A model generated the notes under the pieces. It did no database searches. It was not told the origin of the DNA and saw nothing but the letters and a program-made list of their open reading frames with translations. A DNA stretch of 64,000 nucleotides from Candidatus Omnitrophota bacterium (GTDB taxonomy: Bacteria > Omnitrophota > Gorgyraeia > 2-01-FULL-45-10). The stretch is taken from contig JAFGRN010000002.1 in the NCBI GenBank assembly GCA_016935115.1, positions 3,748 to 67,747 of the forward strand, read 5' to 3'. Each line of letters begins with the position of its first letter. Within the stretch, counting starts at the first letter, position 1. The position numbers and the translations under genes were made by a program. Of this stretch, positions 27,118 through 59,683 are shown piece after piece.

Positions 27118-27118
27118 C

Positions 27119-34479: not shown

Positions 34480-34495
34480 AGTGTTGTCCCGTATA

Positions 34496-39230: not shown

Positions 39231-39246
39231 CTTCCCTTTCTCACTG

Positions 39247-40389
39247 TTAAAGAATATGCGCTTTCGCATTTATGCCCATTCCGCTGAGCGCGCCCTCGAT
39301 CTCTTTTTTATATACGCTGTTCATGACCAGGACGTCAATCTTTCCCGTTGCCTTCCTGAGTACGGCCGGAGGCTCGATGCGCTTCGCGCTTACCGGCAGG
39401 AACCTCCCCTGCTTCTTCTCATTTATATCCACGACGTATTTCACGCGTTTCAGCAACTCGTCATTAAGGGCGCTCAGAAATAACACTCCCTTGCCCGAAG
39501 CGCCCCAGACGCATAGATTCTCCGCAGAGCGGATAAAATCGTCCCGCTCTCTTTTTATGCCCTTAAGGACGTTGCCCAAGTCAATTCCGGAAGCTTCCGG
39601 ACGGCCGCTCATCGCATCTTTGCAAGCCGTCGGGTCGTATACGGCCTCCAGCAGTATATATTCCCCTCCGAAAACATTGCTGATCCGGATATCGCGGAAC
39701 CCCGCCGAAGAGATCAGCGCCGCCAGGCTCTTCCTGCAAAAATAGTTACAGTGCTCATAAGTGATGTCATAAAAGGCCTCTTTCCTGACTATCCATTCGA
39801 GATCCGGCACTTCGACGCAGATCTTCGCTCCCTTTGCCAGAACACTGGGCCTGCATATCTGCTTCAGGAAGAGATACGGCTTATGAAGATGCTCGAGAAC
39901 ATGCCTCAGTATAAGTACATCATATCCGGAATCCGCGGCGGAAGGGCTGAAATATTCCTTCCGGAAAATTACCGATCCCTGAACGCCGTCACCGGTATAT
40001 GCCCTGTCGTAACCGAAACCCCTTGCGTGCGTCCTGTCACATAATTTCTTTAAAAAATCGCCGTTGCCGCATCCGACCTCCAATATTCTCGCGTCCTTCC
40101 GGATGTCTTTGCCGACTTTGGAGGCAAGTTCATCCAGATAATCGCGATAGGCAGGCGAGCTATCCCTGCTATTGTCATAATGCCGGTCATATTCCAGGAT
40201 ATCCGGGTCGAAAGCGCTATTAAAGACCGCGGCGCACTTATCGCAGGCTACCAGCTCGACCTCTCCCACGGGAGCCTTGACAGCCTCGGCCGCCGTCCGA
40301 TAGGTGACGTTGTTCATCGCGGGACAACGTTCCTTTCGGTAGACGACTCTGCGCTCGATCCGTTCACGGCAACATGGGCATTCGATCAT
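39247..40389 (-). CDS. sugar C-methyltransferase-like protein (Zn-ribbon plus class I MTase plus C-terminal domain)
   Basis: N-terminal CPCC…C Zn-ribbon and SAM motif LEVGCGNGDF, with a domain order like TylC3-type C-methyltransferases. Confidence 0.55.
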   Translation of the reverse strand: MIECPCCRERIERRVVYRKERCPAMNNVTYRTAAEAVKAPVGEVELVACDKCAAVFNSAFDPDILEYDRHYDNSRDSSPAYRDYLDELASKVGKDIRKDARILEVGCGNGDFLKKLCDRTHARGFGYDRAYTGDGVQGSVIFRKEYFSPSAADSGYDVLILRHVLEHLHKPYLFLKQICRPSVLAKGAKICVEVPDLEWIVRKEAFYDITYEHCNYFCRKSLAALISSAGFRDIRISNVFGGEYILLEAVYDPTACKDAMSGRPEASGIDLGNVLKGIKRERDDFIRSAENLCVWGASGKGVLFLSALNDELLKRVKYVVDINEKKQGRFLPVSAKRIEPPAVLRKATGKIDVLVMNSVYKKEIEGALSGMGINAKAHIL

Positions 40390-40408
40390 CTGTCCTGAAC
40401 CTCTATAA

Positions 40409-41125
40409 CTATAGTTTTTTTAAAAATCCGTCGGGACAATATGTCGTCTTAAGGCGGTTATAGGTCCTGTCGACTTCCCAGCCGGATCGCCCCCGTAAAA
40501 AGTCCCTTATCGCCCTCATCGGATTATCGTCCTTCCATTCCTTCTTCCCGGTCGGATTGCTTGTCAGCATCTCCTGGATTCCATCCATGACCACCATGTA
40601 ACTGCCCCTGGATACAAAGCGGGAATAGATCTCCAGCTCTTTCAGGACGTGGCCGTACGAATGATTGGAATCCAGTATTACTAGAACTTTATCGCTCTTT
40701 TTTACGCCGTTCTGAACGACCCTGACCGTATCCTCGCTCGTGGAACTGCCCTGGATGAGCTCTATCCTTTTGGATAACGGGTGTTTCCTTATAGCGGCTT
40801 CATTGGGCTTTCGTATATCTATGTCGACCCCGATCACTTTGCCATTGCCCAATAATTCTAGAATCGAGGCGCTAAGCATGAGGGACCCGCCATGGGCCAC
40901 TCCGGTCTCGATAACGACGTCAGGGCGCACTTTCCACAACAGCTCCTGCATCATCACGATATCCGAAGAGAGCTGTATGATCGGGATACCCAGCCATGTC
41001 GGCTCGTAAACGAGCCTGTTATGAAATGACACCCGCTCCCATAACCGGGCCACCAGCGACAGGCCTTCTTCGCTGTATATATCCACCTCTTTCGATTCAT
41101 CCCCGTCAAGAACCCTGATCTTCAT
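40409..41125 (-). CDS. CmcI-family (cephalosporin-hydroxylase-like) methyltransferase
   Basis: …VIETGVAHGGSLMLSA…VIGVDIDIR… is typical of the CmcI/class-I MTase family frequent in heptose-modification loci. Confidence 0.6.
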   Translation of the reverse strand: MKIRVLDGDESKEVDIYSEEGLSLVARLWERVSFHNRLVYEPTWLGIPIIQLSSDIVMMQELLWKVRPDVVIETGVAHGGSLMLSASILELLGNGKVIGVDIDIRKPNEAAIRKHPLSKRIELIQGSSTSEDTVRVVQNGVKKSDKVLVILDSNHSYGHVLKELEIYSRFVSRGSYMVVMDGIQEMLTSNPTGKKEWKDDNPMRAIRDFLRGRSGWEVDRTYNRLKTTYCPDGFLKKL

Positions 41126-42144
41126 TGCTCACTCCCTTGCCTTGGCACGGAACACGACCTGTCACAATCGCTCACATAAATGATCTTGCTCCCCTGCGAC
41201 TCAAAACTGAACGGCGTCTCCCTGAGCCCGGAAAGAGCCCTGCGCACGCCGTCCTGTTTATCCTTTTCACAATAAAACAGGAGGAAGCCGCCTCCTCCAG
41301 CGCCCAGCACCTTGCCCCCCACAGCGCCAGCCTTCAATGCCTTCTCGTAGCTTTCGTCAATCCTGTTATTCGTAATACCGTTGGCGAGCTTCTTTTTGAG
41401 CAGCCACCCTTCGTGTAATATCTCGCCAAAACCGTGCAGGTCGTTCCCCTGAAGCTTCTTCAGCAACTTCTGAGACAACGCCACTATGTCGTTCAGGTGC
41501 GCCATGTTCTGCTTTGTCTTCTCGCCCTGCTCTTTCAATATCGATGACGACACACGCGTGACCCCTGTGTAGAAGAGCATCAATTTGTCGTTAAGAATCT
41601 TTTTCGTCTCCCCCGGAAATATGACCGGGTCGACGAAGACGCTATCGTCACTGTTAAACCTGATATACTGGATCCCCCCGTATGCGGCTATATACTGATC
41701 CTGTTTACCTATGGGGTTCTTCAGTACGTTTATCTCGATCTCGCACGCCTCCCTGGCCAGGCGTTCACCGGAAACATGCTGGCCCTTGAATGCGTATAAA
41801 GCGTTCAGTACGCCTACGGCCAGGCTGCTCGAGGATCCGAGGCCTATGCCCGCGGTTCCCAGAGGGACGTCACCCATGTAGACGACCTCGATACCCCTCT
41901 TGATGCCGGCCAATCGCAACGCCTCGCGGATTATATTGTGCTCCACCTGGTCGACGGTCTCGACAAGCTCAGTCTTCGAATAACTTACCCGGACCAGATC
42001 ATCGAACTTCTGGTTCACCGTTATGTAGATGTATTTATTGATCGCGGCGGAGACAACCGAACCAGGCCTGTTTCTGTAATATTCTGGCAGATCGGAGCCG
42101 CCGCCCGCAAAACTCACTCTCAGTGGTGTCCGTGAAATGATCAT
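41122..42144 (-). CDS. GHMP kinase, D-glycero-D-manno-heptose 7-phosphate kinase-like (HddA-like)
   Basis: PLRVSFAGGGSDLPEYY N-terminus and GHMP motif PLGTAGIGLGSSSSLAV. Confidence 0.7.
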   Translation of the reverse strand: MIISRTPLRVSFAGGGSDLPEYYRNRPGSVVSAAINKYIYITVNQKFDDLVRVSYSKTELVETVDQVEHNIIREALRLAGIKRGIEVVYMGDVPLGTAGIGLGSSSSLAVGVLNALYAFKGQHVSGERLAREACEIEINVLKNPIGKQDQYIAAYGGIQYIRFNSDDSVFVDPVIFPGETKKILNDKLMLFYTGVTRVSSSILKEQGEKTKQNMAHLNDIVALSQKLLKKLQGNDLHGFGEILHEGWLLKKKLANGITNNRIDESYEKALKAGAVGGKVLGAGGGGFLLFYCEKDKQDGVRRALSGLRETPFSFESQGSKIIYVSDCDRSCSVPRQGSEQ

Positions 42145-43034
42145 ACCTTCACCTCCAGGCTCTTAAGATATTGCCTTATTCCCGACTCAATGCCGGTCCT
42201 GGCCCGCCATCCGAAAATTGTGCGCGCCCTGGATGTATCCGCCCAGAAGTCCGCCGTCGCCTTCGTCCTGGCGGCTTCCAGCGCAGCGGCTTGCACCGGC
42301 CGCCTTCCCATGGCTTTCTCCAGTTCCATACAGACTTTCCAGACATTCACCGCGGCGCCGGTCCCGAGATTATACGCGCCCGAAGGTATCTCCTCTTTTA
42401 CGGCCCGCACTATCGCCTCCGATACATCATCCACGTAAATAAAATCGTTCGCGTTCCACGGCGTGCGGATCACGGGTGTTTCGCCTCTCAATAACGCAGA
42501 GGCCATAACCGGAATCAGCGAAGTCTCCTTCTGGCCGGGGCCATAGATGAAAAAACCGCGCAGCCAGATAAACGACGTGCCGTTCTTCGCGGCGAGCGTC
42601 ATACCAAAATCGCACAGAGATCTCTTCGCCCATGCAAAATAGGAATTAACGGGCGCCAGGACATCTTCCCTGCAGGCGCCGTAAGACTGGCCATATTCCC
42701 AGCAGCTTCCCATCGATACGATCTTCCGGCATCCGCACTCCTCGGTCAACAGGCGAAATAGCGCTGTTCCCTGGCCCAGGTTCCTGCGGGACATCTCAAA
42801 ACCGTAATCCGGGATTCCTTCCCACGCAAGGTGAACACAGGCATCCGGACGGAAAGCTTTTAACGCGCCTTCCAGCGAATCCGGCTCATTAAGATCTCCT
42901 TCGATAACGCGGAGCTTTCCGGCGAGTCCGGCCGGCGCCTTACGACAGACGACGGCGATTTCATCCGCGCCGGACAAAGAACGCTGCAGCCTTCTGCCTA
43001 TAAATCCTGTCGCTCCCGTTATAACGATCTTCAT
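42141..43034 (-). CDS. NAD(P)-dependent sugar reductase/epimerase (SDR)
   Basis: MKIVITGATGFIGRRL Rossmann motif; placed after the RmlC-like epimerase, as a 4-reductase would be. Confidence 0.65.
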   Translation of the reverse strand: MKIVITGATGFIGRRLQRSLSGADEIAVVCRKAPAGLAGKLRVIEGDLNEPDSLEGALKAFRPDACVHLAWEGIPDYGFEMSRRNLGQGTALFRLLTEECGCRKIVSMGSCWEYGQSYGACREDVLAPVNSYFAWAKRSLCDFGMTLAAKNGTSFIWLRGFFIYGPGQKETSLIPVMASALLRGETPVIRTPWNANDFIYVDDVSEAIVRAVKEEIPSGAYNLGTGAAVNVWKVCMELEKAMGRRPVQAAALEAARTKATADFWADTSRARTIFGWRARTGIESGIRQYLKSLEVKV

Positions 43035-43050
43035 GATATCCTCGCCGGAG

Positions 43051-43614
43051 TCAAACGGTCACCGCGCCTTCTTTTGCCAGATAATCCTTAAATGACGGCG
43101 CGGCCAGGTCCTTATCCGAAATGATAAGCGGCCCATTGATCGGCCATGAAATATTCAGGTCCGGATCCTTCCAGTGTATCGTCCGGGAACTCTCCCGGTG
43201 GTACGGCGTATCCATCTTATACAGAAGGGAGCAATCGTCCGTCAAGGTATACATTCCCATGGCCATCCCCTTGGGCGCGTACAGAAGTTCCGGGGCCTCT
43301 ATCGAAAGCTCGACGCTATCCCATAGGCCGAACGTCGGCGAACCCGCGCGCATATCTACAAGAACCATAAAGGCCCTGCCCTGCGCCACCCGAACAAGTT
43401 TCGTTTCAGTATAAGGTGAGCATTGAAAATGCAGCCCCCTCAAAGTACCTCTCTTCTTTGAAAAAGAGTGAGTTTCCTGGATCCACCGCGTCACAAGGCC
43501 ATATCCGGCAAGAATATCCCGGTCATAGGTGCGGGCCAGGAACCCCCTGTCGTCTCGGTGCGGGGCGAGCGTGATCCGGAACGCGCCATCTATCTTTAAA
43601 GGAATAAGTTCCAT
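43051..43614 (-). CDS. cupin sugar-nucleotide 3,5-epimerase (RmlC-like)
   Basis: 187 aa; …RDDRGFLARTY…GTLRGLHFQ… matches the RmlC fold motifs. Confidence 0.7.
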   Translation of the reverse strand: MELIPLKIDGAFRITLAPHRDDRGFLARTYDRDILAGYGLVTRWIQETHSFSKKRGTLRGLHFQCSPYTETKLVRVAQGRAFMVLVDMRAGSPTFGLWDSVELSIEAPELLYAPKGMAMGMYTLTDDCSLLYKMDTPYHRESSRTIHWKDPDLNISWPINGPLIISDKDLAAPSFKDYLAKEGAVTV

Positions 43615-43618
43615 AGCT

Positions 43619-44884
43619 TCATAGCTCCCGCGCCATCAACTGCGGAGCCGAAATTACCCGCGGCGCTTTCGGAAACGGCACTATATATTGCCCCCTGAAT
43701 CCGCGCCTGGCGCATTCGTCCATGATCTCCCCGGCAAAATTCCACGCCAGTATAAAGATCACATCCGGCCTGAATGCCAGGCCTTCTTCAAACGACACAA
43801 TCGGCAGATCGCCGGCAGGAGTCATGCATCCCTGCTTGAGAGGATTATTGTCGATGATGGCTCTGAGATAGTTGGGCCCGATGCCGCAAAAATTGATAAA
43901 CGTGGCACTGCGCGCCGAAGCGCCAAAACCCACGATCACCTTCCCGCTCAGGGACTTGAGCAGATCCAGCATCTTTTCGCGATGGTCTATGGCATAGCCG
44001 GCAAATTTTTCCCAGGCCGCGAACTTATTGATCCCGGACCTTTTTTCAGCGCATAAGAGCTCTCCGTATTCCGGTTGCTGCGGACGTTTTGTCTTGGAAA
44101 AGTACAACACGATCGACCCGCCGCTAATGGGACTCTCATCTACGGCAAAGGGGTACAGCCCGTAACGTTCAAGAAGGTTTCCGAGGGAATGCGCCGTAAA
44201 ATAGCACAGGTGCTCATGATAGATGGAATCGTAATGAAGATCCCTCGCTATGACGGCTCCGCTGTGAAATTCGATCACGCCGGTACCGTCATCGGAGAGA
44301 GCGCTGGCGATACCTTCGGTCACGCCGTGAAGGTCGCTCACATGCGGAATGACATTCCGCGCTATTATCGTTTTCGGCCTGCCGTACCGGGCGACCGCCG
44401 TTTTCGCCGAAGAGGCATCCCAATACGAACAGTCCGTGGGAACTCCGTTGCGAACGGCCATCTCGGCTATATTTCTCGCCGGCTCTATTCCGAGGACTTT
44501 CATCCCGCGGGCCGCGAACTGCCTGAGGACCGTGCCGTCGTTCGAGGCTATCTCAAAGACCATATCCCCGCGGCGCAGGCCGGAGCGATCGATGACCCGG
44601 CCTGAAAATATGCCCGCATATTCCTGCGCGCATTTTGAAGTACCGGTGACCCACACGTACCGATCGAAAAGGACCTCTTTACGCAGTGTTTCTCTGAGCT
44701 GGAAAAGAGAGCATTCCGGGCAGAAGGCCGTAGAGAGAGGAAATTTTTCAATTCTGCCGGCGGCGGGGCGCACCAACGCGTTGGCAAGCGGCTGTTCACC
44801 CAGATTAAGGACATCTTTCAGCCCCTTATATCCGCAAATCCGGCAGGCTGTAATCGTTTCAAATATTTTTGACATTGGAGCCAT
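43619..44884 (-). CDS. sugar C-methyltransferase (TylC3/NovU-like family)
   Basis: N-terminal Zn-ribbon CRICGYK…CPEC, a class I MTase core and a C-terminal dinucleotide-binding-like domain; 421 aa is typical of the family. Confidence 0.6.
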   Translation of the reverse strand: MAPMSKIFETITACRICGYKGLKDVLNLGEQPLANALVRPAAGRIEKFPLSTAFCPECSLFQLRETLRKEVLFDRYVWVTGTSKCAQEYAGIFSGRVIDRSGLRRGDMVFEIASNDGTVLRQFAARGMKVLGIEPARNIAEMAVRNGVPTDCSYWDASSAKTAVARYGRPKTIIARNVIPHVSDLHGVTEGIASALSDDGTGVIEFHSGAVIARDLHYDSIYHEHLCYFTAHSLGNLLERYGLYPFAVDESPISGGSIVLYFSKTKRPQQPEYGELLCAEKRSGINKFAAWEKFAGYAIDHREKMLDLLKSLSGKVIVGFGASARSATFINFCGIGPNYLRAIIDNNPLKQGCMTPAGDLPIVSFEEGLAFRPDVIFILAWNFAGEIMDECARRGFRGQYIVPFPKAPRVISAPQLMAREL

Positions 44885-44891
44885 AATTGTC

Positions 44892-45926
44892 CTATCGGAA
44901 CAGGCGAAGGTCCCCTGAAACCTTTTTATTGTCCTGCAGATACCTGATCTGCTTTAGCCTGGCGCAGGTACGCCCGCGAAAATGATCCTCATTGAACCCC
45001 GTCTTCCTGAAAAACCCGATGAGTTCTTTCCCTCCGCTATCGAGGTCCCATTCGGGCCTGAAATAGTCTTTAAGCACGGAGAGGATCTTTTTAAAACTGA
45101 CCTGATATGTGCGGGAATCATTTCCGTGCTCGCCGGTGAAGACTAGGGAGCTTCCGGAAACCGAACGCTGCGCAGCTTCGGCGAGTTCACGCACCGTAAA
45201 GTTGCCTCCCGGGATACCGACATTGAACGCCTGGCCGGAGACGAGTGACAGCGGCGCTTCGAGCCCGGCTATATAGGCGCTCGAGACATCACGCACATGG
45301 ACCACCGGCCGCCATGGCGACCCGTCGCTCTTTATCTCGATCCTGCCCGTAGCGTAAGCGCATCCGACCAGATTATTGTAAACGATATCGCACCTGAGGC
45401 GGGGGCTCGCGCCGAATACCGTCGACGGGCGGAAGGAGACGACATGAAAATTCTTATCGGCCAATTTCTTAAGGGCGCATTCCGCTTCCCATTTTGTGCG
45501 GGCATAGGCCGTCAGCGGATGCTTCTTGCTGTTGTCCTCATCGAGCTCGCAATCGACGGCCGAAACTCCGTACATGCTCTGCGATGAGGAATAGATAAAC
45601 CTTTTCACTCCCGCGCTCTTCGCGGCCAGCGCGGCCTTCACGGTCCCGCCCAGGTTGATCTCTTCCGTCAATCCTGGGGCAAACTCGCCAAGCGGATCGT
45701 TGGATAGCGCGGCCAGATGAATCACCGCGTCGACCCCCTCCATATCCTCCGTCGTGATGTCGCGGATATCTTTCCTTATCTGCCGTATGGCCGGATTGTA
45801 CGGATGCAGAAGGCAATCCGCATAGTACCCGATATCATACCCGACCACTTCATATTTCCTGTCGAGCAGCATATCGACCAGGACGCTGCCGATATACCCC
45901 TGATTGCCCGTAACCAGTACTTTCAT
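44892..45926 (-). CDS. NAD-dependent nucleotide-sugar dehydratase/epimerase (SDR)
   Basis: MKVLVTGNQGYIGSVL and YARTK catalytic motif. Confidence 0.65.
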   Translation of the reverse strand: MKVLVTGNQGYIGSVLVDMLLDRKYEVVGYDIGYYADCLLHPYNPAIRQIRKDIRDITTEDMEGVDAVIHLAALSNDPLGEFAPGLTEEINLGGTVKAALAAKSAGVKRFIYSSSQSMYGVSAVDCELDEDNSKKHPLTAYARTKWEAECALKKLADKNFHVVSFRPSTVFGASPRLRCDIVYNNLVGCAYATGRIEIKSDGSPWRPVVHVRDVSSAYIAGLEAPLSLVSGQAFNVGIPGGNFTVRELAEAAQRSVSGSSLVFTGEHGNDSRTYQVSFKKILSVLKDYFRPEWDLDSGGKELIGFFRKTGFNEDHFRGRTCARLKQIRYLQDNKKVSGDLRLFR

Positions 45927-45927
45927 A

Positions 45928-46476
45928 TCACGCCTTTACTTTCTCCAGCTCATACGCAAGGCTATCGACTACCGACGACAGCCAGGATTGATGGACGGCT
46001 TCTATGATATTGTACTCGTCACTGTCGGTCCACAAATTGAGGTCTCCGAGCCGCCTCAATGGATTATCCGGCCTGAACCCCGAGAGAGTGATCACCTTAA
46101 GGCCCATCGATCTGGCCTGCCGGGCGGCATTCACGATGTTGGGCGACTTACCGCTGCTGCTGATCAGGATCACCAGGTCCCCGGCGCAGGCATAGGCTTT
46201 CAGCGCCTCTTCGACCCAATGCTCATAACCGTAGTCGTTGGAAAAACATGTGATCAGGTCCGCGTCGTTAAAACTGATCGCGCGGACACCCGCCGTCTTT
46301 GTAAGGTCCACCGATACATGGCTCGCGATCGCAGCGCTGGCGCCATTGCCTGCGATCATGACCTTGCCGCCGAGTGATGACGCCTCTCGCACAAGCGCCG
46401 CGCCCTTCTCTATGGCGTCGTCATCGACATCGAGAATTGCCCGGCATATCCTCTGCAGATAATCTCTGATCTTCAT
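45928..46476 (-). CDS. gmhA: SIS-domain sedoheptulose-7-phosphate isomerase (GmhA-like)
   Basis: SIS motifs (…GGKVMIAGNGASAAIASH…DLVILISSSGKSPN…). The ATG at 46476 (MKIRD…) forms an ATGA overlap with the upstream stop and is preceded by GGGAGG; the track's longer N-terminus is rejected. Confidence 0.7.
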   Translation of the reverse strand: MKIRDYLQRICRAILDVDDDAIEKGAALVREASSLGGKVMIAGNGASAAIASHVSVDLTKTAGVRAISFNDADLITCFSNDYGYEHWVEEALKAYACAGDLVILISSSGKSPNIVNAARQARSMGLKVITLSGFRPDNPLRRLGDLNLWTDSDEYNIIEAVHQSWLSSVVDSLAYELEKVKA

Positions 46477-47231
46477 TCTCCGCCCTCCCGTCTTAAGCAC
46501 GCGAATCCCTTCTCCCGGGACGCCTTTTCGAACCGGATAAGATCCCCGGGGGATGTGATGAAGTAATATTGTTCGTCAGAAACGAACGCTCCCAGCCGCC
46601 CGTCTGCGGCCAGGCGCGCCAGTATCTTCTCCTCAAAAGAGATATTGCCCTCCTCCGCCCTGTCGAGAACCTTCCTGTCTACCAGGAAAAATCCGATATC
46701 GATCCCGTTCAACCCTTCCATGCGCCGGTTCTTATCGTATGCCACGACCTTTCCGCGGTGATCCACGGCAACATTATTCCCGGAGCCATACTCGCCCGTA
46801 CCCTGTTTATTGCTGAACACCGTTGTCGTCACGGGAACCCCGATCCGCTCATAATTGAAGATCATCTTGTCCAGCGGAATCGTCCAATAATTGTCGCCAT
46901 AGAGTAACAGAAACCGGTCTTCGAGCTTTTCGTAAGCGTCCAGAAGCCGCCTGCCGGTCAGGTCATCTTCTGTCCCGACCGAATAGTCTATCCGCAGCCC
47001 GAATTCTCTGCCGTCACCATAGTAGCCCATGATCGCGTCTGCGCGATAACCTACCAGAAAGAGAATCCTACGGATGCCGGAGTTGACGAGCGACCGCATC
47101 AGATAGTCCGTAAACGGCCTCCCATTCACCGGCACCATCGGCTTCGGAATGCCATCCGTGATGGGCCTGAGGCGTTCACCGCGGCCACCCGCGAATATGA
47201 CTGCCTGCTGGATTGTCATTTGTTTATGCAT
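46473..47231 (-). CDS. sugar-1-phosphate nucleotidyltransferase (HddC/GMP-like)
   Basis: AVIFAGGRGERLRPITDGIPKPMVPV nucleotidyltransferase signature; first gene after a promoter/operator. Confidence 0.65.
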   Translation of the reverse strand: MHKQMTIQQAVIFAGGRGERLRPITDGIPKPMVPVNGRPFTDYLMRSLVNSGIRRILFLVGYRADAIMGYYGDGREFGLRIDYSVGTEDDLTGRRLLDAYEKLEDRFLLLYGDNYWTIPLDKMIFNYERIGVPVTTTVFSNKQGTGEYGSGNNVAVDHRGKVVAYDKNRRMEGLNGIDIGFFLVDRKVLDRAEEGNISFEEKILARLAADGRLGAFVSDEQYYFITSPGDLIRFEKASREKGFACLRREGGE

Positions 47232-47259
47232 ATTGTTCAGATGGCTCTATTTATGAGTG

Positions 47260-47307
47260 TTTAAAACGTTCTAAACGAATATTATCATACTACCCTATCT
47301 GTGTCAA
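47260..47307 (-). promoter_or_regulatory. second copy of the promoter/operator module: TTGACA, 17-nt spacer, TAATAT -10, then the same 16-bp palindrome TTTAAAACGTTCTAAA
   Basis: On the minus strand, TTGACA corresponds to 47307-47302, the 17-nt spacer to 47301-47285, TAATAT to 47284-47279 and the operator to 47275-47260. The 16-mer is identical to that at 33008-33023. Confidence 0.6.
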
Positions 47308-47365
47308 TATAATTGTATGTTTAGTGGTAAGGCGGGTAGATCGTGAGGAAACTGAAGAATAAGGA

Positions 47366-49381
47366 TTAAATAGCCACCCATTTCGGCCAAAAGTCTCTGA
47401 TACTGCCATCCCTGTACAACATCTGGAGCGAAAGTATGGCATCCTTATTAGCGTACATAAATTCTTTTGCCTTTTTCTTTATGTCACGCTCAAAAATAAC
47501 CCTGTATGAAGACACCCTATAAAAATCTTTCAATAGCAGTGAAGTGTTGAGATTTGCCAGCCATACAGGTATATCGTAATTGAGGCATATTTCTCTTTCG
47601 CTCAAGAGGTTTCCACCGGCAAAGACGGCCTTTACATCCCTTGTCAATAAATACTGTTTCATGTCCGCGAGAATCAGATCTACCCCCTCTTTCATATCAA
47701 TCGCGTTCAATAGCTTTTTGGCCTCGGACAATGCCAGATCAAGCACCGACCTGTAGCTATGGAATAGGACGAGTTGTTTATACTTTCTCAGCAGATTATC
47801 GCCATATTTACCTTCGCAAAGCGCCTTCCAGTTTTCGGGTTCGTCAAAAAATTCCAGGAGCGCCTCTCTCGTAGGAAATAACTCCGCTTTTGTCTCCCGG
47901 ACGAATTCCTGATAGTAAATGTTTATGTCGGAAAATTCGGACAATCTGCGATGAATATCGAAGACCCAGTCCGCCATATCGATGCCATTTTCAATCAAAA
48001 GCCTTTTGAGAGGAATCAGTTCTATTGAAGAGCAGAAAACGGATATTGTAAAGCATAGGCGGCGAAGCTCGATATAATCATCGAATGACATCGTATTGGT
48101 CCCGATGATAACTTCCTCTGTATCAAGTATCTTCTTCCCGTCGATGACACTGAACTGCCGCGGCACCACCCTGTGGCGGATCACATAGCCGTACTTGCGG
48201 GCATTCTCCTCAGACGAAAGCGGCGTCCCCTTAAGCGCCATCAGAGTGTATATGCAAATGTTTTGCACGCCCGATCTTATGACCTTTCTTATTGTTTCGA
48301 GAAAGCTATCCTTGGTCTCCCCCGGAAGGCACAGGATCAATTCGGTTTCGGATGCTTCGCCGGTTTTCCTCAAAATCTCATGCTGAAACGAGATGAAATC
48401 CTCGAACGGGATATTTGTCCTGTTAATATTTTTTAATACTTCCGGCGTCAGTGTCTGTAACGCGATACCCGGATTAAATCGGATGATCGAGGACATCTCC
48501 ACCAGCTTCTTCGGATCCTTTCCGGAATTGAAGTTCATATTCCTGGGCCAGTCGTATTTTTTCTGTGTATCGCGGATTATCCCGGCGATCACGAAGTCCT
48601 CTTTGAAGAGGCTCATGTTAGTATTGGCCAGGTATAACATCACTTCATGTTTCCCGGAGAAGCGCCTGCCGAGATATTCCATATCCCGCCTGAAAATATC
48701 CGGGGAGAGAAAGAGCATGCGCGAGTAATATCTGTCGCTCGTATGGCAAAAGGCGCATGTGAAGGGACAGCCGCGATGGGTCTGTAAAAAAGGATGGGAT
48801 CCGCTGTCGAGAAATTCATCAAAAATCCCATCGGCATAAAGAGATCCCAGGGCATCCAGGGAATTAAGGCGCGGAGGCGGCTCCGGTGAGTCCACTATGT
48901 CGCCGCGGGAAGCATCGTAAGAATACGTACCGGGCCCCGGTTTCCTGCGGATATCGCCGGGCTTCTCCCCTTTCAAAAGGCGCTTCACGGTCTCGGTGAA
49001 TGGAATCTCGCCATCATATGAAACACAAAGATCAATAAAGGCATATTTTTTGAAAAAATTTCTGCGGCCGGATTTAAGCAGGTCGAGATTAGGCCCCCCG
49101 GCTATGACAAGACACCCCGGATCGGCGTCTTTAATCCGCGCGGCTACATGCAGGTTAAGCTCACTGTTCCATGAGTATTGGGCTATACCCAGCACATCGG
49201 GACGCCAGGACTTAAAAGCCTTCAGGGCCTTATCAGTATCTTTGAAAAGCCTGGTATTTACGCTATTCCCCACTGCTTTGTCCAGATATCGCGCGATCGC
49301 CCCCAACCCCAACGGCACTGTGTTGGTGTGTATGCCCCGCGTCGTATGGTTTAAGTCCAACAAAGCTATTTTCATTCCCAT
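47366..49381 (-). CDS. large (671 aa) cobalamin-binding radical SAM enzyme
   Basis: THRGCPFTCAFC and a B12-binding-like N-terminus; third member of the 675-aa paralogue group. Confidence 0.8.
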   Translation of the reverse strand: MGMKIALLDLNHTTRGIHTNTVPLGLGAIARYLDKAVGNSVNTRLFKDTDKALKAFKSWRPDVLGIAQYSWNSELNLHVAARIKDADPGCLVIAGGPNLDLLKSGRRNFFKKYAFIDLCVSYDGEIPFTETVKRLLKGEKPGDIRRKPGPGTYSYDASRGDIVDSPEPPPRLNSLDALGSLYADGIFDEFLDSGSHPFLQTHRGCPFTCAFCHTSDRYYSRMLFLSPDIFRRDMEYLGRRFSGKHEVMLYLANTNMSLFKEDFVIAGIIRDTQKKYDWPRNMNFNSGKDPKKLVEMSSIIRFNPGIALQTLTPEVLKNINRTNIPFEDFISFQHEILRKTGEASETELILCLPGETKDSFLETIRKVIRSGVQNICIYTLMALKGTPLSSEENARKYGYVIRHRVVPRQFSVIDGKKILDTEEVIIGTNTMSFDDYIELRRLCFTISVFCSSIELIPLKRLLIENGIDMADWVFDIHRRLSEFSDINIYYQEFVRETKAELFPTREALLEFFDEPENWKALCEGKYGDNLLRKYKQLVLFHSYRSVLDLALSEAKKLLNAIDMKEGVDLILADMKQYLLTRDVKAVFAGGNLLSEREICLNYDIPVWLANLNTSLLLKDFYRVSSYRVIFERDIKKKAKEFMYANKDAILSLQMLYRDGSIRDFWPKWVAI

Positions 49382-50916
49382 TAGTCCGCCTTAGCGTAAT
49401 CCAGCCGCGGCATTAATTCCACCGCGAGATTCTTTAATATCTTAACGTCGTATATCTGCGTCCAGTGGCGACGATCTTCGGGCAATGACCAGATGTAGCC
49501 ATTTATATCCTCCGCCCGGAGCCTGAACAACCTGCCCTTTTCCGAATCGTATACGTTTATATATGCGTCTACCTTCTCTCCGATGCGGTACTTCCTGTCG
49601 GTCAGGTGACCGCCGGCATATTCAAAGCGCTTATTGAGGGCGCTCGTCACTATCGGCCGATGGAAGAGCAGTCTGTATACACACATCGGAACCCATCCTT
49701 CGGATAAGAACTCTATATTACTCACAGGCCCGTACTTACTGTATTGATTACCGGAGAAATATAAGGTCCTATCCTCTTTATACTCCCGCAGGGCATCATT
49801 ATCCTTCATCGTCAGGATCACTTTTTGCTGATGCAAGCTCCAGCGCTTCCAATGGTCGGAGATCCCGAAGATGGCAAAGATAAGAATAATGCATACCGCG
49901 GCCTTGAGCTTCTTCGGCAGAGGAATTGATATTAAGAGATATGTAACCAATAATGATCCGAAGATCGTCACCCTGTTACCCAGGCCGAAACAGACCTGCG
50001 GATACCGGCCGGTGAACGCGTACATGAGAAAAGATAGAGCCGTCAACATAACCAGGCAGGCGCCCAGCCGCGAATTATAAACGACATTACAGCGCGTTAT
50101 CACCCTATAGCAGACAACCGAAATTATTAAACATAATATGACCGACTGCGCGGACAGCTGGGAAAAAGCGTAGTATACCTTGAGCCACATCGACGGGCCC
50201 AGCGCGGCGTCGGTGAACGTCAATACTTGCAGCGCGTACTGTTTGATGATGCCGGAAACGCTGACCGCCTCAAGAATCCTGGGATGCCCCGCGCTCCGTA
50301 TGGCCGTTAAATAGATGAAGTAAGAGGCATATATTATGTTGGGGACTATGATAACCGCGGCTTTCTTAAAATTTTTGCCGAGGCAGAAGAGCGCAAAGAG
50401 CGCTACAGCTATGGGCGTACTGCCGTATGATATAAATGAGGCCGCAAGCGCCGACAGGAACGCGAAGAAAAGCTTATCGCGATGCGCCAGATAGAAGGCG
50501 TAGAGATACAGGGCAAATGACAGGGTGAGATACTGGTTCATGAACATATACACAGTGGAATCGTGCGAAGGGAAGAATACAAATATGAAAGATGCCAGGA
50601 CGGCGAGCGATTCGTCCATATAGATCCTAAGGAACTGCGCTATCATGTACAGCGCCAGGATGATATAGGCGATCTTTACCGCGTTCACGGCGGCCGCATT
50701 ATCAAAGCTGAAGAAGTAATACGGGAGGTAGTGGCTGTAATACATCACCGGCGTGTCCGCGTAATAGGGACTGTTTACGGGTATCAGTATATTTTTGAGG
50801 CCCGTGATCTTCGAGCTTGTGACGGCATCGAAGTCGTCGGAGAATAGCCCCGTGTTTATGACAAGATAGGCCGTCAATATGAAGAACAACAGATACATCA
50901 GCTGTATTTTTTTCAT
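49381..50916 (-). CDS. polytopic membrane protein, putative GT-C-fold glycosyltransferase or polymerase
   Basis: About 10-12 predicted hydrophobic helices, an acidic SDDFD motif after the first helix (resembling the GT-C first-loop motif), and a soluble C-terminal domain of about 130 aa. Confidence 0.45.
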   Translation of the reverse strand: MKKIQLMYLLFFILTAYLVINTGLFSDDFDAVTSSKITGLKNILIPVNSPYYADTPVMYYSHYLPYYFFSFDNAAAVNAVKIAYIILALYMIAQFLRIYMDESLAVLASFIFVFFPSHDSTVYMFMNQYLTLSFALYLYAFYLAHRDKLFFAFLSALAASFISYGSTPIAVALFALFCLGKNFKKAAVIIVPNIIYASYFIYLTAIRSAGHPRILEAVSVSGIIKQYALQVLTFTDAALGPSMWLKVYYAFSQLSAQSVILCLIISVVCYRVITRCNVVYNSRLGACLVMLTALSFLMYAFTGRYPQVCFGLGNRVTIFGSLLVTYLLISIPLPKKLKAAVCIILIFAIFGISDHWKRWSLHQQKVILTMKDNDALREYKEDRTLYFSGNQYSKYGPVSNIEFLSEGWVPMCVYRLLFHRPIVTSALNKRFEYAGGHLTDRKYRIGEKVDAYINVYDSEKGRLFRLRAEDINGYIWSLPEDRRHWTQIYDVKILKNLAVELMPRLDYAKAD

Positions 50917-50933
50917 ATTTTAAAACCCTGCCG

Positions 50934-52505
50934 TCAATCCTGCCTGCCGCGGGTGATCAGGTTCCTCAAAAAAGGAAATGCGTGACAGATACTGGTCACG
51001 GGATCCGCGGTAAGATACAGGAATTTCATGATCCTGACCGGATTATAACCATGGCTCCTGACGATCATGAACAGAAAGTTCTTTGCGTTCATGATGGATC
51101 CGTAAAATGTCAACAAAGGCATCGCGCACCTGACCGGCAGGCTATTCTCGCGCCTGACAAGAAATCGCACGAACGCCGCGGGAATGTGCGGGGTTATGAA
51201 TATGATATTGTTAAGAAATTTCTTATCGCCGCGCGACTCGATGGTCGCCTGCGTCTTGTAAAGATCGCACTCCGTTATCACGCCCTCTTTAAGGGCCCGC
51301 GCCGTGATCTCGGTGCCGGGATAAAACCTGAAGCCGTATAATTCGAGAAGAAACGGTTTCGGCAGGGATGCGAGCGTTTCGACGGTCTCAACTATGTCGT
51401 TCCGGAATTCATACGGATTATCGAGCATGACATCGATGATCGGCATCATGCGAAGGCCGCTGAGCCTGCGCGAGGTCTCGACGAACGTCGATATCTTCAC
51501 GGGCCTTTTATAGACTTCGCTCAGGACGCGATAGCTTCCCGACTGCAAGCCTATGCCGGCCGCTATGACGGATAGCTGGGACAGAAGCCGGTACTTGTCA
51601 TCATTGGCGCTGCCCGGTATCATGCGAAACATTAGCGGCAGTTTGATATCACGAAGGTAACGCGGCACGAAATCCTGGAACCACGACAGCGGGCGCGATG
51701 TGAAGCTGTCGTCGTGAAAATTGATAAAACGGATGGTCGGGCGCGAGGAGACGGCTGCAATCAGCTCCTTCATGACATGATCTACGCTGCGCAGGCGCAC
51801 TCTCTTCCACTCATTGCCATAAAGGTTCTTATTGATGTTGTCAGCGCAATAAGTGCATTCCAGGGGACAGCCGCGGGAAGTCGTTATGTCGTACCCGTTA
51901 CCGTTATAACGCTGAAACCTGCCGACATCGGCCGCGCGTATCGGGGCAAACCGCCCTGCGCCGTAAAAGAACGCGGATTCATCCATAACCGGCAGGACGG
52001 CGAGAGAGTCCATGTCGCGGAATAATGGAGCCGCGGCACGGGGCCGGGCGGAACCGGCTGCGGTTACGATGCCCGGCACGTCCATGTTTTCGAGCGAGCC
52101 CTTCTGCTCATAGCATTTCAGGAACTCTGCAAATGATATCTCCCCCTCGCCCAGGCAGACCGCGTCAAAAAATTCCAGGGAGCTTTCGGGAAATGCCGTA
52201 ACGTGGATGCCGCCGCCGGCCAGTACAACACGGGGATCGATTCTTTTAATATCGCCGCATATGCGCCTTACCAGAGCCGACTGGTAGGACATGAAGCTGA
52301 TCCCCACCACATCCGGGTTATTCTTCCTCAGGAACGATGGGAGAGCCTCCGCGAACTTCAGATATCGCGACTCTTCCGTAATCTCGCTTCGGAGATTCGG
52401 ATATACCAGAATTGCGCGATGGCCCGCTTTCAATGTTTCGTAGAAAACGTATCGTATCCCGAAGGTGCACAGGTTTTCCTGCATTGATATGAGTATAACG
52501 TTCAT
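50934..52505 (-). CDS. cobalamin-binding (class B) radical SAM enzyme, 523 aa
   Basis: MNVILISMQE… B12-binding-like N-terminus and SRGCPLECTYC. Confidence 0.8.
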   Translation of the reverse strand: MNVILISMQENLCTFGIRYVFYETLKAGHRAILVYPNLRSEITEESRYLKFAEALPSFLRKNNPDVVGISFMSYQSALVRRICGDIKRIDPRVVLAGGGIHVTAFPESSLEFFDAVCLGEGEISFAEFLKCYEQKGSLENMDVPGIVTAAGSARPRAAAPLFRDMDSLAVLPVMDESAFFYGAGRFAPIRAADVGRFQRYNGNGYDITTSRGCPLECTYCADNINKNLYGNEWKRVRLRSVDHVMKELIAAVSSRPTIRFINFHDDSFTSRPLSWFQDFVPRYLRDIKLPLMFRMIPGSANDDKYRLLSQLSVIAAGIGLQSGSYRVLSEVYKRPVKISTFVETSRRLSGLRMMPIIDVMLDNPYEFRNDIVETVETLASLPKPFLLELYGFRFYPGTEITARALKEGVITECDLYKTQATIESRGDKKFLNNIIFITPHIPAAFVRFLVRRENSLPVRCAMPLLTFYGSIMNAKNFLFMIVRSHGYNPVRIMKFLYLTADPVTSICHAFPFLRNLITRGRQD

Positions 52506-52527
52506 CTCTGTGGCATTCTCGCTTTCA

Positions 52528-53295
52528 TTACGGCCTTATATCTTTTCTCCCCACGGCGAGTATCGAAACACCGAAAGGAAAGCCGCCGAAGATCTTTATC
52601 GCCGCCAGCTCGCATGACATGGCGAATTTAAGGAGTCCGTTAACGACAGGAGGCGGAGCGCCCAGTTCATCCGACGCTTTCTTCGACCGGAAGAGACCGG
52701 CGCGCTGAAGCATTGACGATAATAATAACGGCAGAAAACTTATGCTGTTAAAATATGTGATCCTCGCGACATTGAACCCCGCGGCCTTCATAATATCGCG
52801 GATCTCCGGTACCGTATACCTGCGCTTGCCCATACAGATCCTGTCATTGTCGCGATACAGGAACTTGTAAGCAGGTTCATTTATTACTACAAACCCTCCG
52901 GGCCTGACCAGGCTAAACGCTTCTTTCAAAACCCGCGTATCGTCCAGGATCCATTCGTGGTACAGGACGTTGAAGAACGTCACTATATCGAATTGCTCGC
53001 CGGCAAATGTCTTATCGAGATCATTTGCCGAGCCTATCCTGATCCTGGCGGAGGGATGTTTCCTGAGGCAGATGCCGGCCGCGTGAGCCGAGATCTCAAG
53101 CCCGGTTACGGCGCCATATTTTCTAAGGGTCTCCAGCATTCCGCCCGTACCGCATCCGACATCCAGGATGCCGGCCTGATGGCAGGGTCCGCGCCTTATG
53201 CTGTCCATATAATACTCTACGAGTTTTCTGCGGCCGGTGTGATACCAGTGGGTATCCTCTACGCGAGCCAGATCATCATACGCCTGATTATCCAA
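52528..53295 (-). CDS. class I SAM-dependent methyltransferase
   Basis: Motif I ILDVGCGTGGM, 255 aa. Confidence 0.65.
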   Translation of the reverse strand: MDNQAYDDLARVEDTHWYHTGRRKLVEYYMDSIRRGPCHQAGILDVGCGTGGMLETLRKYGAVTGLEISAHAAGICLRKHPSARIRIGSANDLDKTFAGEQFDIVTFFNVLYHEWILDDTRVLKEAFSLVRPGGFVVINEPAYKFLYRDNDRICMGKRRYTVPEIRDIMKAAGFNVARITYFNSISFLPLLLSSMLQRAGLFRSKKASDELGAPPPVVNGLLKFAMSCELAAIKIFGGFPFGVSILAVGRKDIRP

Positions 53296-53297
53296 TA

Positions 53298-55898
53298 TTA
53301 AACCCTCTGAGCGGCATAATGTTTCGCCGCGTCCCTCGGAAGCATCGATATCATCTCCCTGTCCGCCGCCAGGCCCTTCAACAGCTCTTTATACATCCTC
53401 ACCATAAGATCGTTTCCGCCATAGTATGGATCGGGATGCGTGACCACGGTAACACATCCCATGTCGTCTTTGATGCGCGATATTTTAGACTTCCAGAAAG
53501 CGTTGAGATCCTCCGGTTTCACCCCGCATTGGACCGGAAATTCGTAAGGCAACGTCGTCGGCAGCTCCACAAGGGAGCCTATCATGTAGGGAAATACTGA
53601 ACAGCATCCTCCGACGCCGGCGGGCGATATGTAATCCACATCCAGGACGCTGCAATCGTAAGAAAAATAATCCTGCAATACTCTGAAGAGGCATCCGCTC
53701 CGCAGCCAGGATGGCGACCTGAAACCCGCCATCTTATAAGCCCCGATGATATCCTTGCACGCGTCCATTCTTCTTCTTATATGCGCTTCGCTTAAAAACG
53801 CCAATTTGTTATCGTGATTATACCCGTGGAGGCCTATCTCGAATCCGTTCCGCGCCAGCCAATCCAGCACGGAATAGTCTATCCTGTAAAGCCTGGGGAC
53901 GACATTCCACGACGACCTGAAACCATACTCCATCTCCGCTTCGGCGATCGCCTTCACCCACTTCCAGTTGTTGCCATTTTCTATGTCGTGGGTAAGTATG
54001 AGGGCGCACTTTTTATCTCCCGGCCATGATACTCTCCCCGTATACCTGAGGCAATCTTCCGGAAGGCTCTTAGAGGACGCTCTACGCAACCGTTCCAGGG
54101 AGCCTTCGTAGGGCCACAACGGAAATGACGAGGATGGCGGAGAACCGCGCCTGAAGAGTTTCTGCCCATAGTACCTCACGGGAGCCGGGATCTTCTGGTA
54201 GTTAAAAGGGACGGATGTGTATAAAGGCCTTTTGAGATCCGCGTACTTTTCATATATAACATTCTCAAAAATCTTTCCGGCATACAAATTGTAAAGGGAG
54301 TCGACAGGGCCGGACCCGGAAGCTTCCCCGCGAAGATCGTAATAACCGGATAGTTTGTCCAGATCATCCTTAACGGCATCGTATCCGGGCGAACTACCCT
54401 TCCTGACCCTGCCTATGGCCACTTTCAACGCCACGTAGAAGAACCTCATATTCAGGAAGAAAACAAGCCGCGCCATATTCCACATCTTCGCGGGCGAAAG
54501 ATACCACTTCCCGGACATCTTTATAACATTGCCTCCGGCGAATGAGGATTTAAGAATCCGCTTTATGCCCTTCACGCTGAGATAGAACGACAGATTAGCG
54601 TACATAGTGTCAAACATAAGCCCATACCGGTCATTGCCCTTCGGGACATACGGCAGGTCATCGCCTTCCCACATATACTGGACCGCAAAATTTTCCCAAT
54701 CCTTCTTAATGACCACTTCACCCCGGCTCTTCAGCATCTCGTAGACTGGCGTGCCGGGATAAGGCGTGAGAGTATTGAATCTCGTGCTTGCAAGCGGCAT
54801 ATCGTTTGCCAGTTTTATGGCGTCCCGGCGGTCCCTGGCGGTCTCTCCCGGAAGGCCGAAGATGATGGTAGTGGCGGCGGCTATGCCCTTATCGTTCGTC
54901 ATCCTCACCGCGTCCACGACCTGCTTTACCGTCTCGCCTTTCCCTATCAGGCTCATGAGAGACTCCGAGCCGGTCTCCATCCCAAAGGCTATCATCCTGA
55001 AATTCGCCGCTTTCGCTTTATCGAGGATGGCTTCGCTGATATTATCCGCCCTCATGGAACCGTGAAAAGAGACATCTCCGGGAAAGCCCGCGGCTATTAT
55101 TGAATCCAGGATCTCCATAAAGCGCCGGCTATGGCCCGCGATGTTGTCGTCCATCAGCCATATGGTCTTCTGTCCGTACTTTTCTACGAGCGCCTTTATC
55201 TCGGAGACGACCCTCCCGACGCTGAAATACCTGTACCTCTTGCCCGATATGCTGCGGGATGAGCAGAATATGCAGTTATAAGGACAGCCCCTCGAAGTGA
55301 ATATGCCGCCGAATGAGGGGTATCGGTCCTTATCCTTCTCAAAAAGATGATATGGAAACGGCGGTATGTCGTCGAGATTTTCTATGACAGGCCTGTCGGG
55401 ATTATGGACAAACCCGTTCTTGCCTTTGAAGGATATGCCGGGAATATTTTTTGGATCATCGCCGCTCATAACCAGCCGCGACAGCTCCTCGAACGTCTTC
55501 TCCCCCTCACCCCTCACGACCATATCTATTCCGGGGCTGCTGAGAGCCTCTTCGGGAAGCACTGTGGGATGTATCCCCCCAGCCACCACCAGGCATTCCG
55601 GATCCACGCCCTTTATCTTCTCGCCGAGCTCGTAGGCTCTCTTGGAATTTATGGTCAATACGCTAAGCCCGACAATACGCGGCTTCTCCAGGGAGAGGAT
55701 AATGCCGGGCAGGCCCCTATCCTTAATGAAATCCAGCTGTTCATCTATTATGCGGACCGGGCCTATGCCGCGCGCGCCCAGAAATCCCGCGAGGGCGCCG
55801 AGGCTTGTGGGGAACGTGGTATTTATGACCGCATTTACGATCTTGTTCTGCGACGAGGAATTGATGGCCGGGTTAATCAGCAGGATATTTTTGCCCAT
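53298..55898 (-). CDS. fusion protein of a cobalamin-binding radical SAM enzyme and a polysaccharide deacetylase (CE4/NodB-like) domain, 866 aa
   Basis: B12-binding-like N-terminus, SRGCPYNCIFC, then a C-terminal region of about 240 aa with deacetylase-like motifs (LTHDIEN…GLHGYNHD). Confidence 0.7.
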   Translation of the reverse strand: MGKNILLINPAINSSSQNKIVNAVINTTFPTSLGALAGFLGARGIGPVRIIDEQLDFIKDRGLPGIILSLEKPRIVGLSVLTINSKRAYELGEKIKGVDPECLVVAGGIHPTVLPEEALSSPGIDMVVRGEGEKTFEELSRLVMSGDDPKNIPGISFKGKNGFVHNPDRPVIENLDDIPPFPYHLFEKDKDRYPSFGGIFTSRGCPYNCIFCSSRSISGKRYRYFSVGRVVSEIKALVEKYGQKTIWLMDDNIAGHSRRFMEILDSIIAAGFPGDVSFHGSMRADNISEAILDKAKAANFRMIAFGMETGSESLMSLIGKGETVKQVVDAVRMTNDKGIAAATTIIFGLPGETARDRRDAIKLANDMPLASTRFNTLTPYPGTPVYEMLKSRGEVVIKKDWENFAVQYMWEGDDLPYVPKGNDRYGLMFDTMYANLSFYLSVKGIKRILKSSFAGGNVIKMSGKWYLSPAKMWNMARLVFFLNMRFFYVALKVAIGRVRKGSSPGYDAVKDDLDKLSGYYDLRGEASGSGPVDSLYNLYAGKIFENVIYEKYADLKRPLYTSVPFNYQKIPAPVRYYGQKLFRRGSPPSSSFPLWPYEGSLERLRRASSKSLPEDCLRYTGRVSWPGDKKCALILTHDIENGNNWKWVKAIAEAEMEYGFRSSWNVVPRLYRIDYSVLDWLARNGFEIGLHGYNHDNKLAFLSEAHIRRRMDACKDIIGAYKMAGFRSPSWLRSGCLFRVLQDYFSYDCSVLDVDYISPAGVGGCCSVFPYMIGSLVELPTTLPYEFPVQCGVKPEDLNAFWKSKISRIKDDMGCVTVVTHPDPYYGGNDLMVRMYKELLKGLAADREMISMLPRDAAKHYAAQRV

Positions 55899-55918
55899 AT
55901 GTTTGCCGAAGCATCACC

Positions 55919-56863: not shown

Positions 56864-57513
56864 TCCGCCTTCCTTATGACACGGGCAGGATTGCCCACCG
56901 CCACGACGCCCCCGTCAATATCGGATATGACATTGGCACCCAATCCTATCAGGGCCCCTTCTTTAACGGATACGGATTCCTTTATGCGCGAGCCGGACCC
57001 TATGTAGCAGCCTGCGCCCACCCTCACGCCTCCCGATATCGAAACATTGGAGCCGACACAGGTATAATCACCTATAACGGTATCGTGCAGTATGGAGGTA
57101 TTCGGCAGGACGATGCAGTGGTCCCCTATGGTAACCCCGCAGCTTACAACCACATTGGCCATCAACAGCACATTGCGCCCTATCCGGGCATCCGGAGATA
57201 CGACGACCGACGGGTCTATGATGGTCGCGAAACGCTTATCATCGAGCCCCAGGCTCTCTATGATCTCCCTGCGCCTTGAGAAACTCTTAGGATTTCCCGG
57301 CACCGCAAGCACCGACACGCCGGGAAAACCGCCCAGGACCTCTCTGCCGCCCAGGACCTTCACTCCGAGACAATCTTTGCCATGAACCTTCGGATCATCG
57401 TCTATAAAACCCAGGACATCCCATTCTTTCTTCTTCGCGTTTGCCGCCAGAATCGGCAGGAGCGCTTCTCTGGCATTACCGCCGAACGGAAAGAGCGCGA
57501 TCTTTTTAGGCAT
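56860..57513 (-). CDS. PglD/NeuD-family sugar N-acetyltransferase (left-handed beta-helix)
   Basis: N-terminal Rossmann-like IALFPFGGNAREALL followed by hexapeptide repeats. Confidence 0.7.
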   Translation of the reverse strand: MPKKIALFPFGGNAREALLPILAANAKKKEWDVLGFIDDDPKVHGKDCLGVKVLGGREVLGGFPGVSVLAVPGNPKSFSRRREIIESLGLDDKRFATIIDPSVVVSPDARIGRNVLLMANVVVSCGVTIGDHCIVLPNTSILHDTVIGDYTCVGSNVSISGGVRVGAGCYIGSGSRIKESVSVKEGALIGLGANVISDIDGGVVAVGNPARVIRKAE

Positions 57514-59670: not shown

Positions 59671-59683
59671 CTTATATGCAGCC

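Follow-up and report, generated by a model that had tools for sequence, protein, structure and literature searches.

Two non-coding gaps that lie 14 kb apart in a genome of Candidatus Omnitrophota carry the same 16-mer behind similar promoters, and the question raised by this locus is whether a single regulator governs both of the operons that follow, one containing nonulosonate genes and the other heptose-type genes. The original prediction held that it does, naming the GbsR/MarR protein encoded at 32490..32984 as the probable regulator. We know of no pure cultures of Omnitrophota, and to our knowledge gene regulation in this phylum is almost unexplored. Here, we analyze the whole 64,000-nucleotide stretch of DNA in which the gaps lie (referred to as the window), and compare it with about 70 other genomes through loci that encode a homologue of the regulator.

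The repeated 16-mer is the core of a palindrome

The coding strand of every long ORF in the window is the minus strand. As first described, only two non-coding gaps are longer than 100 nt, gap 1 at 32985-33108 (124 nt) and gap 2 at 47232-47365 (134 nt), the next largest being 55 nt. Each gap holds an exact copy of TTTAAAACGTTCTAAA, at 33008-33023 and 47260-47275 on the plus strand, and these are the only two copies in the 64-kb window, where a search allowing up to three mismatches to the 16-mer also returns only those two sites. Dinucleotide-preserving shuffles give a mean of 0.29 matches at this mismatch limit, with 0/100 shuffles reaching the observed count, in keeping with the earlier judgment that a chance match is unlikely. 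When read on the minus strand, the 16-mer becomes TTTAGAACGTTTTAAA, a near-palindrome. The description of the repeat as a 16-bp operator holds for its exact copies but not for its length, the 16-mer being the core of a 20-24 bp palindrome. The predicted operators, given here as 20-mers on the minus strand, are O1 in gap 1 (CATTTAGAACGTTTTAAACA, 33006..33025, with its 16-mer core at 33008-33023) and O2 in gap 2 (CGTTTAGAACGTTTTAAACA, 47258..47277, with its core at 47260-47275). O1 scores 29.1 bits and O2 32.1 bits of a maximum of 33.9 in a PWM scan, where no other site in the 64 kb reaches 10 bits. Since the nonulosonate operon begins with the regulator gene itself, O1 is a predicted autoregulatory site.

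Promoter architecture of the two gaps

A TTGACA-17-TAATAT promoter had been noted in gap 2; its elements are present, but the strand is minus. This promoter, P2, has its -35 TTGACA at 47302..47307, a 17-nt spacer, and a -10 TAATAT at 47279..47284 that is preceded by TG (an extended -10) and followed by TCG and then the 16-mer. P1, on the minus strand of gap 1, consists of TTGACA at 33050..33055, again a 17-nt spacer, and TAAAGT at 33027..33032, with TG before it and TCA between it and the 16-mer. The conserved spacing that had been claimed is borne out, with the -35 and the 16-mer 32 nt apart in both gaps, counted from first base to first base. In a promoter scan of 32400-47900, P1 and P2 belong to four matches tied for the best score, 10/12, and of the four only these two have TG before the -10. 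Because they are near consensus (10/12 plus TG, sigma-70-type), P1 and P2 should need no activator. The predicted start falls ~7 nt 3′ of the -10, which ends at 47279 in P2 and 33027 in P1, and is thus within the palindrome; because the palindrome begins 2-3 nt past the -10, O1 and O2 span this start, covering roughly -5 to +15.

Sites over a start point are usually repressive, while MarR-type activators also exist, and the regulator might bind the palindrome as an activator or act dually. We regard activation or dual action as improbable here, given that the site follows the -10 and covers the predicted start, that P1 and P2, near-consensus promoters with an extended -10, need no activator, and that the characterized relatives GbsR, OpcR, OpuAR, and CydE are repressors (PMC7396694, PMC6207618). 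We favor repression.

The two gaps are alike in more than the palindrome, and this likeness could stem merely from duplication of a promoter cassette within the island, with no shared regulatory meaning. In an ungapped comparison, the P1 and P2 cassettes agree at 47/66 positions, and identities outside the palindrome include the GTATGnTAA context of the extended -10 and a TAAATAG 3′ of the site, located on the minus strand at 47247..47253 in gap 2 and at 32995..33001 in gap 1, where it coincides in part with the ribosome-binding site (GGAG) of the regulator. The shared TAAATAG points to cassette duplication, such that the similarity is partly common descent, and most of the other loci described below have a single site. 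When taken per element, however, identity is 6/6 in the -35, 8/17 in the spacer, 4/6 in the -10, and 16/16 in the 16-mer, while 5′ of the -35 it is 16/53, the level of random sequence. The contrast between the 16-mer and both the spacer and the upstream DNA argues for selection on single elements, 55 loci from several phyla preserve the palindrome, and duplication is in any case compatible with shared regulation. Duplication devoid of regulatory meaning is, in our estimate, quite unlikely, and we favor two promoters under shared control.

In gap 1, a further match to a promoter, TTGATA-18-TAAAAT at 33063-33092 on the minus strand, scores 10/12 and lies ~37 nt upstream of P1; transcripts arising from it would need to cross O1. 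A terminator scan revealed no terminator-like hairpin within gap 1 or gap 2, so that sequence by itself does not fix the limits of the units, and read-through between the three units, lacking terminators, may blur control. The two gaps had also been put forward as the main transcriptional entry points of the island, which fits two thirds of the window but does not extend to the genes at 63905..47366, which need another promoter, outside P1 and P2.

The regulator is an Mj223/GbsR-type winged-helix protein

The gene at 32490..32984 (minus strand) encodes a protein of 164 aa, has GGAG 8 nt before its ATG, and heads the P1 operon. Its product is an Mj223/GbsR-type winged-helix protein of the MarR superfamily. 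Pfam gives weak winged-helix matches to the protein (HTH_5 and MarR_2), of which HTH_5 scores 26.7 bits (cut-off 22) and covers residues 32-73 only; the NCBI name for the protein is ArsR/SmtB family. Unlike the partial match to HTH_5, the full-length matches are to GbsR/Mj223. The NCBIfam model CudC, of the GbsR family, aligns residues 3-152 to profile positions 2-149 of 171 with an E of 2.5e-19, at a score that falls far short of the cut-off for a CudC equivalog (69.7 vs 218 bits), and a family profile search finds Mj223 (PDB 1KU9) with an E of 7e-28. The AlphaFold2 model (pLDDT 82) is arranged as helix-helix-helix-helix-strand-strand, followed by two long helices. Its top Foldseek match is 1ku9_A (E 2e-11, TM 0.64/0.68, 36% identity), with classical MarR proteins far behind (E about 5e-4, TM about 0.4). 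Homologues of the regulator number more than 500 and are nearly all 164 aa in length, with the JGI name 'GbsR (MarR family)'. The reading region VSKGNVSxNIRxLExWGAV is almost invariant across these homologues, which fits a conserved operator.

In addition to the choline-responsive proteins, the GbsR family holds CydE as well as functionally uncharacterized groups from archaea and Bacteroidetes (PMC6207618). The choline cage is located in the post-wing linker, being built from W93, Y94, N96, and R100 in OpuAR, with six Phe in GbsR (PMC6207618). In the family studied here, the consensus of residues 88-105, NLDxKKVxxNKxKSxxQK, has no aromatic cluster by inspection, and choline is unlikely to be the ligand because the post-wing linker is without such a cluster. 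The opu/gbs osmoprotectant genes are absent as neighbors of the regulator in the window and related loci; the neighbors there are nonulosonate, heptose, aminotransferase, and radical-SAM genes. One Omnitrophota locus, L025, has two paralogous regulator genes (185-798 and 3021-3479), with the operator preceding the first paralogue, whose product begins MNEKLVEAQD.

The site is coupled to the regulator gene across genomes

One scan of species-representative genomes yielded 80 loci with a regulator homologue (20-kb loci, 1.15 Mb). The 16-mer, with at most three mismatches, occurs no more than 200 nt upstream of the regulator homologue in 43/80 loci, and the typical layout is TTGACA-17-TATAAT-CG-TTTAGAACGTTTTAAA-CG, positioned 20-40 nt before the ATG. 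The family consensus is a perfect 24-bp palindrome, ATCGTTTAGAACGTTCTAAACGAT, with two abutting 9-bp half-sites GTTyTAAAC. Using a PWM threshold of at least 19 bits, the palindrome is found in 55/80 loci, including 46 of the 52 best tblastn-ranked (L001-L052), and no unrelated match at this threshold occurs in the 1.15 Mb of loci. It is nearly always located 2-3 nt past the -10 of the promoter driving the regulator or its operon, with TTGACA (at most one mismatch) at the same fixed distance in 40 of the 55. Site and regulator are coupled in Omnitrophota, Clostridia-labelled, Nitrospirota, and delta-proteobacterial MAGs, irrespective of the neighboring genes. The closest relative with DNA sequence (L203), whose regulator is 78% identical, repeats this cassette and carries three half-sites in phase. 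In L001, L006, L026, L035, and L049, the site is at the promoter of an operon and the regulator gene is 0.8-7 kb downstream. The regulator of L202, which like that of L001 is within an operon, has no site in the 3.6 kb upstream of its gene.

Directly past the palindrome, in 9-bp phase, many loci carry a third half-site, GTTCTAAA(C/A), examples being L203 (1568-1596), L029, L033, L039, L041, and L048. At this place the window has only TAAATAG, one nt off phase in both gaps, and that of gap 2 is possibly a degenerate third half-site. A distant regulator subfamily, from delta-proteobacterial and Bdellovibrio-like MAGs (L053, L054, L056, L058, L064, L065, L067, and L075), has the same palindrome about 600-800 nt past the regulator start, after the regulator gene, where it fronts genes for a radical-SAM protein with an HMPTM zinc ribbon (PF23545) and a CDP-alcohol phosphatidyltransferase.

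An unbiased metagenome scan with GTTTARAAYRTTYTAAAC bears on which protein recognizes the palindrome. Among the 120 exact matches listed, 15 have a homologue beside the site, which in 13 of these 15 is less than 100 nt upstream of the homologue start, and 105 have no regulator homologue nearby. Most of these 105 are located on AT-rich contigs and probably match by chance. AT-rich palindromes of this type are common in AT-rich DNA, and the 105 also leave room for another protein, such as a global regulator, to bind the palindrome in place of the adjacent GbsR-like protein. We give a different binder little weight, as 55/80 loci have the site at a set distance from the regulator gene whatever the neighbors, and the roughly 57 genes of the window revealed no further DNA-binding protein. 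The palindrome in 55 of the 80 homologue loci, along with the 15 homologue-adjoining sites among the 120 matches listed, instead points to the GbsR/MarR protein as the probable regulator, as originally named.

A reading at the RNA level, in which both 5′ leaders would contain one hairpin or riboswitch-like element in common, would draw on the palindrome being partly transcribed and on the 20-mer forming a hairpin of -3.6 kcal/mol. It appears very improbable: a search of 32000-48000 against Rfam gives no match at E up to 1, the two leaders fold weakly and unlike each other (z-scores -1.3 and -1.7), the left arm is largely upstream of the predicted start, and the sequence identity of the half-sites is conserved beyond their ability to pair. 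The variable positions of the palindrome are 5/12 and the central tetranucleotide. Half-site covariation was considered as a discriminator between protein and RNA and was dropped, with the variable positions being uninformative and the palindrome center being a would-be loop. Recognition of the DNA by the GbsR-like protein is the reading that we retain.

Genes of the island and extent of the proposed regulon

Gap 2 had been described as fronting heptose-type genes, and an operon with HddC-like, GmhA-like, and HddA-like genes is indeed found behind P2, comprising 14 tightly packed genes at 33109..47231 on the minus strand. These include an HddC-like nucleotidyltransferase, a GmhA-like SIS isomerase, a dehydratase/epimerase, a sugar C-methyltransferase, an RmlC-like epimerase, a reductase, an HddA-like GHMP kinase, O- and C-methyltransferases, radical-SAM enzymes, and a GT2. 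The best NCBIfam matches of 45928-46500 and 41122-42144 are the heptose enzymes GmhA and HddA, respectively, while 46473-47231 matches mannose-1-phosphate guanylyltransferase and Arch_glmU better than HddC, its third-ranked model. The scores of GmhA, HddA, and HddC are far under the NCBIfam cut-offs (82/209, 143.5/600, and 88.5/300), and among the genes of the P2 operon no phosphatase of the GmhB type was noted; the full GDP-D-glycero-D-manno-heptose set would comprise GmhA, HddA, GmhB, and HddC. The 'heptose' label for the P2 operon is plausible.

The nonulosonate operon assigned to gap 1 is likewise present, with the regulator followed, after 17 nt, by PseB, a cytidylyltransferase, a PseG-like protein, a carbamoyltransferase, and PseI. 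PseB (493.8 vs 407.75) and PseI (439.8 vs 340.25) score above the cut-offs of their NCBIfam equivalogs. Beyond the regulator, the operon occupies 1125..32472 on the minus strand, with pseudaminic and legionaminic-like sets and many B12 radical-SAM genes; positions 1-1124 hold an ABC-transporter membrane-domain ORF that continues past the window edge. The pseudaminic set includes PseB at 31495-32472 and PseI at 24835-25881. The legionaminic-like set consists of a dehydratase (14906-15904), a DegT protein (13813-14922), a formyltransferase (11046-11762), NeuB (10049-11155), a 2-epimerase (8874-10052), a CBS-nucleotidyltransferase (7790-8884), and a cytidylyltransferase (7074-7784). Each nonulosonate set has a HisH/HisF-like pair (24209-24832 with 21379-22167, and 5319-5942 with 4507-5325), which hints at acetamidino modification.

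Radical-SAM genes are abundant in the window, where one same-strand island at 3063-55898 contains nine that are B12-binding, two of the SPASM type (37127-38092 and 19150-20211), and one further gene (38028-39269). Those with B12-binding domains include 47366-49381, 50934-52505, 53298-55898, 34496-35983, 33109-34629, 22168-24195, 15901-17355, 11759-13813, and 3063-4451. This abundance suggests heavy C-methylation or other sugar tailoring, and related Omnitrophota loci have the same radical-SAM enrichment. Five ORFs of 370-644 aa have no Pfam match (49381-50916, 17352-19220, 20208-21377, 5965-7077, and 1125-3059). The product of 1125-3059 has homologues at an equal relative position in L001 and L014, and at the corresponding position L202 encodes a similar-sized protein tagged PF27878 PFTS_polysacc. 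A transglutaminase-core gene is found directly upstream of the operator and regulator in L010, L014, L015, L019, L020, L022, L029, L001, and the P0008 locus. Its homologue in the window is at 63144-63905, 16 kb upstream of gap 2, and the heptose and radical-SAM blocks may have been inserted between the transglutaminase-core gene and the regulator.

Across Omnitrophota, regulator homologues sit in co-directional glycan islands containing NeuB/PseI-like genes, DegT aminotransferases, epimerases, and B12 radical-SAM genes, and most loci other than that of the window have a single site. Beyond the window, three cases (L057, L113, and L126) have the cassette before sugar-nucleotide genes without the regulator directly after it. 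In L057, a second site precedes an epimerase/dehydratase gene. In L113 and L126, a perfect TTGACA-16/17-TATAAT with the operator 2 nt past the -10 precedes rmlA-rmlC, just downstream of secA, and the 20-mer is identical to that at the regulator promoter of L037. L113 and L126 (1655-1740 in the latter) derive from one metagenome (GC 0.34) and are short contigs without a regulator gene. In two further loci, L011 and L012, HddA- and HddC-like genes lie upstream of the regulator, and no site precedes them within the 20-kb locus; a second site before heptose genes is lineage-specific.

Proposed mechanism and its implications

From the observed sites, their geometry, the family and fold of the protein, and the coupling of site and regulator gene, we infer binding, its direction (repression), and the existence of an inducer. 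In the mechanism that we propose, the product of 32984..32490 would bind as a dimer to the 20-24 bp palindrome at O1 and O2 and, once bound, would sterically stop RNA polymerase at open-complex formation or promoter clearance. At P1, this would control the regulator itself together with the pseudaminic-/legionaminic-type genes, from 32984 down to at least 1125, while at P2 it would control the 14-gene heptose-type operon, 47231..33109. A ligand would relieve repression at both promoters. We consider it likely that an autoregulated dimeric repressor acts in this way at two promoters, that of the regulator operon and that of the heptose-type operon, and the comparative evidence supports the original proposal that one regulator co-controls the heptose and nonulosonate operons.

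A far broader role, in which an Mj223/GbsR-like protein and its 24-bp palindrome constitute a phylum-wide master switch of glycan islands in Omnitrophota and related uncultured lineages, is a tentative idea that we hold to be somewhat doubtful. If it were true, the cue could, for example, come from a host or prey or be a nucleotide-sugar intermediate, these bacteria, which are ultra-small and may depend on a host, could remodel their coat on demand, and the recurrent third half-site would mean that more than one dimer is bound.

For Omnitrophota, the locus provides a testable pair, a 164-aa protein and a 20-24 bp site, that is conserved in dozens of genomes and tied to the synthesis of unusual surface sugars, with pseudaminic-/legionaminic-type acids, modified heptose, and many tailoring enzymes of the B12 radical-SAM type. 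Characterized members of the GbsR family control osmoprotectant or cytochrome bd genes, and the family here gains a glycan-associated subgroup. Our literature search found no GbsR/MarR-type regulator linked to pseudaminic-acid or Omnitrophota glycan loci.

Comparison with known systems

The dimeric repressor GbsR works as a roadblock, its AT-rich inverted repeat, with a 4-bp spacer, being located past the start, while the OpcR site overlaps the -35 (PMC7396694). The Bacillus proteins GbsR, OpcR, and OpuAR resemble the regulator described here in being small dimeric winged-helix proteins modelled on Mj223, the dimer and its control of two operons being predictions in our case, and in pairing an AT-rich inverted-repeat operator at or just past the promoter with one regulator for two operons. 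The geometry is different, as the half-sites of GbsR are 4 bp apart and past the start, whereas here the 9-bp half-sites abut and the site spans the predicted start. The targets differ as well: osmoprotectant uptake and synthesis genes for GbsR, OpcR, and OpuAR, in contrast to the surface-glycan genes predicted here. Among solved structures, Mj223 of Methanocaldococcus jannaschii (PDB 1KU9) is nearest by both sequence and fold, and it informs architecture rather than function. We know of no operator, ligand, or regulon for this archaeal prototype of the GbsR family.

MarR, MepR, and OhrR act as homodimers on a 16-20 bp palindrome that overlaps the -10/+1 region both at their own promoter and at a second target promoter, where they repress sterically until a small ligand releases them. 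The system proposed here is alike in that its predicted operators are palindromic sites near the -10/+1 of the regulator's own promoter and of a second one. MarR, MepR, and OhrR are usually divergent from their target, whereas here the regulator heads a co-directional operon of about 28 genes. An autoregulated, palindrome-binding repressor of the MarR superfamily is a textbook arrangement, and the case for one here is well supported; its operator geometry and the class of its predicted targets are new.
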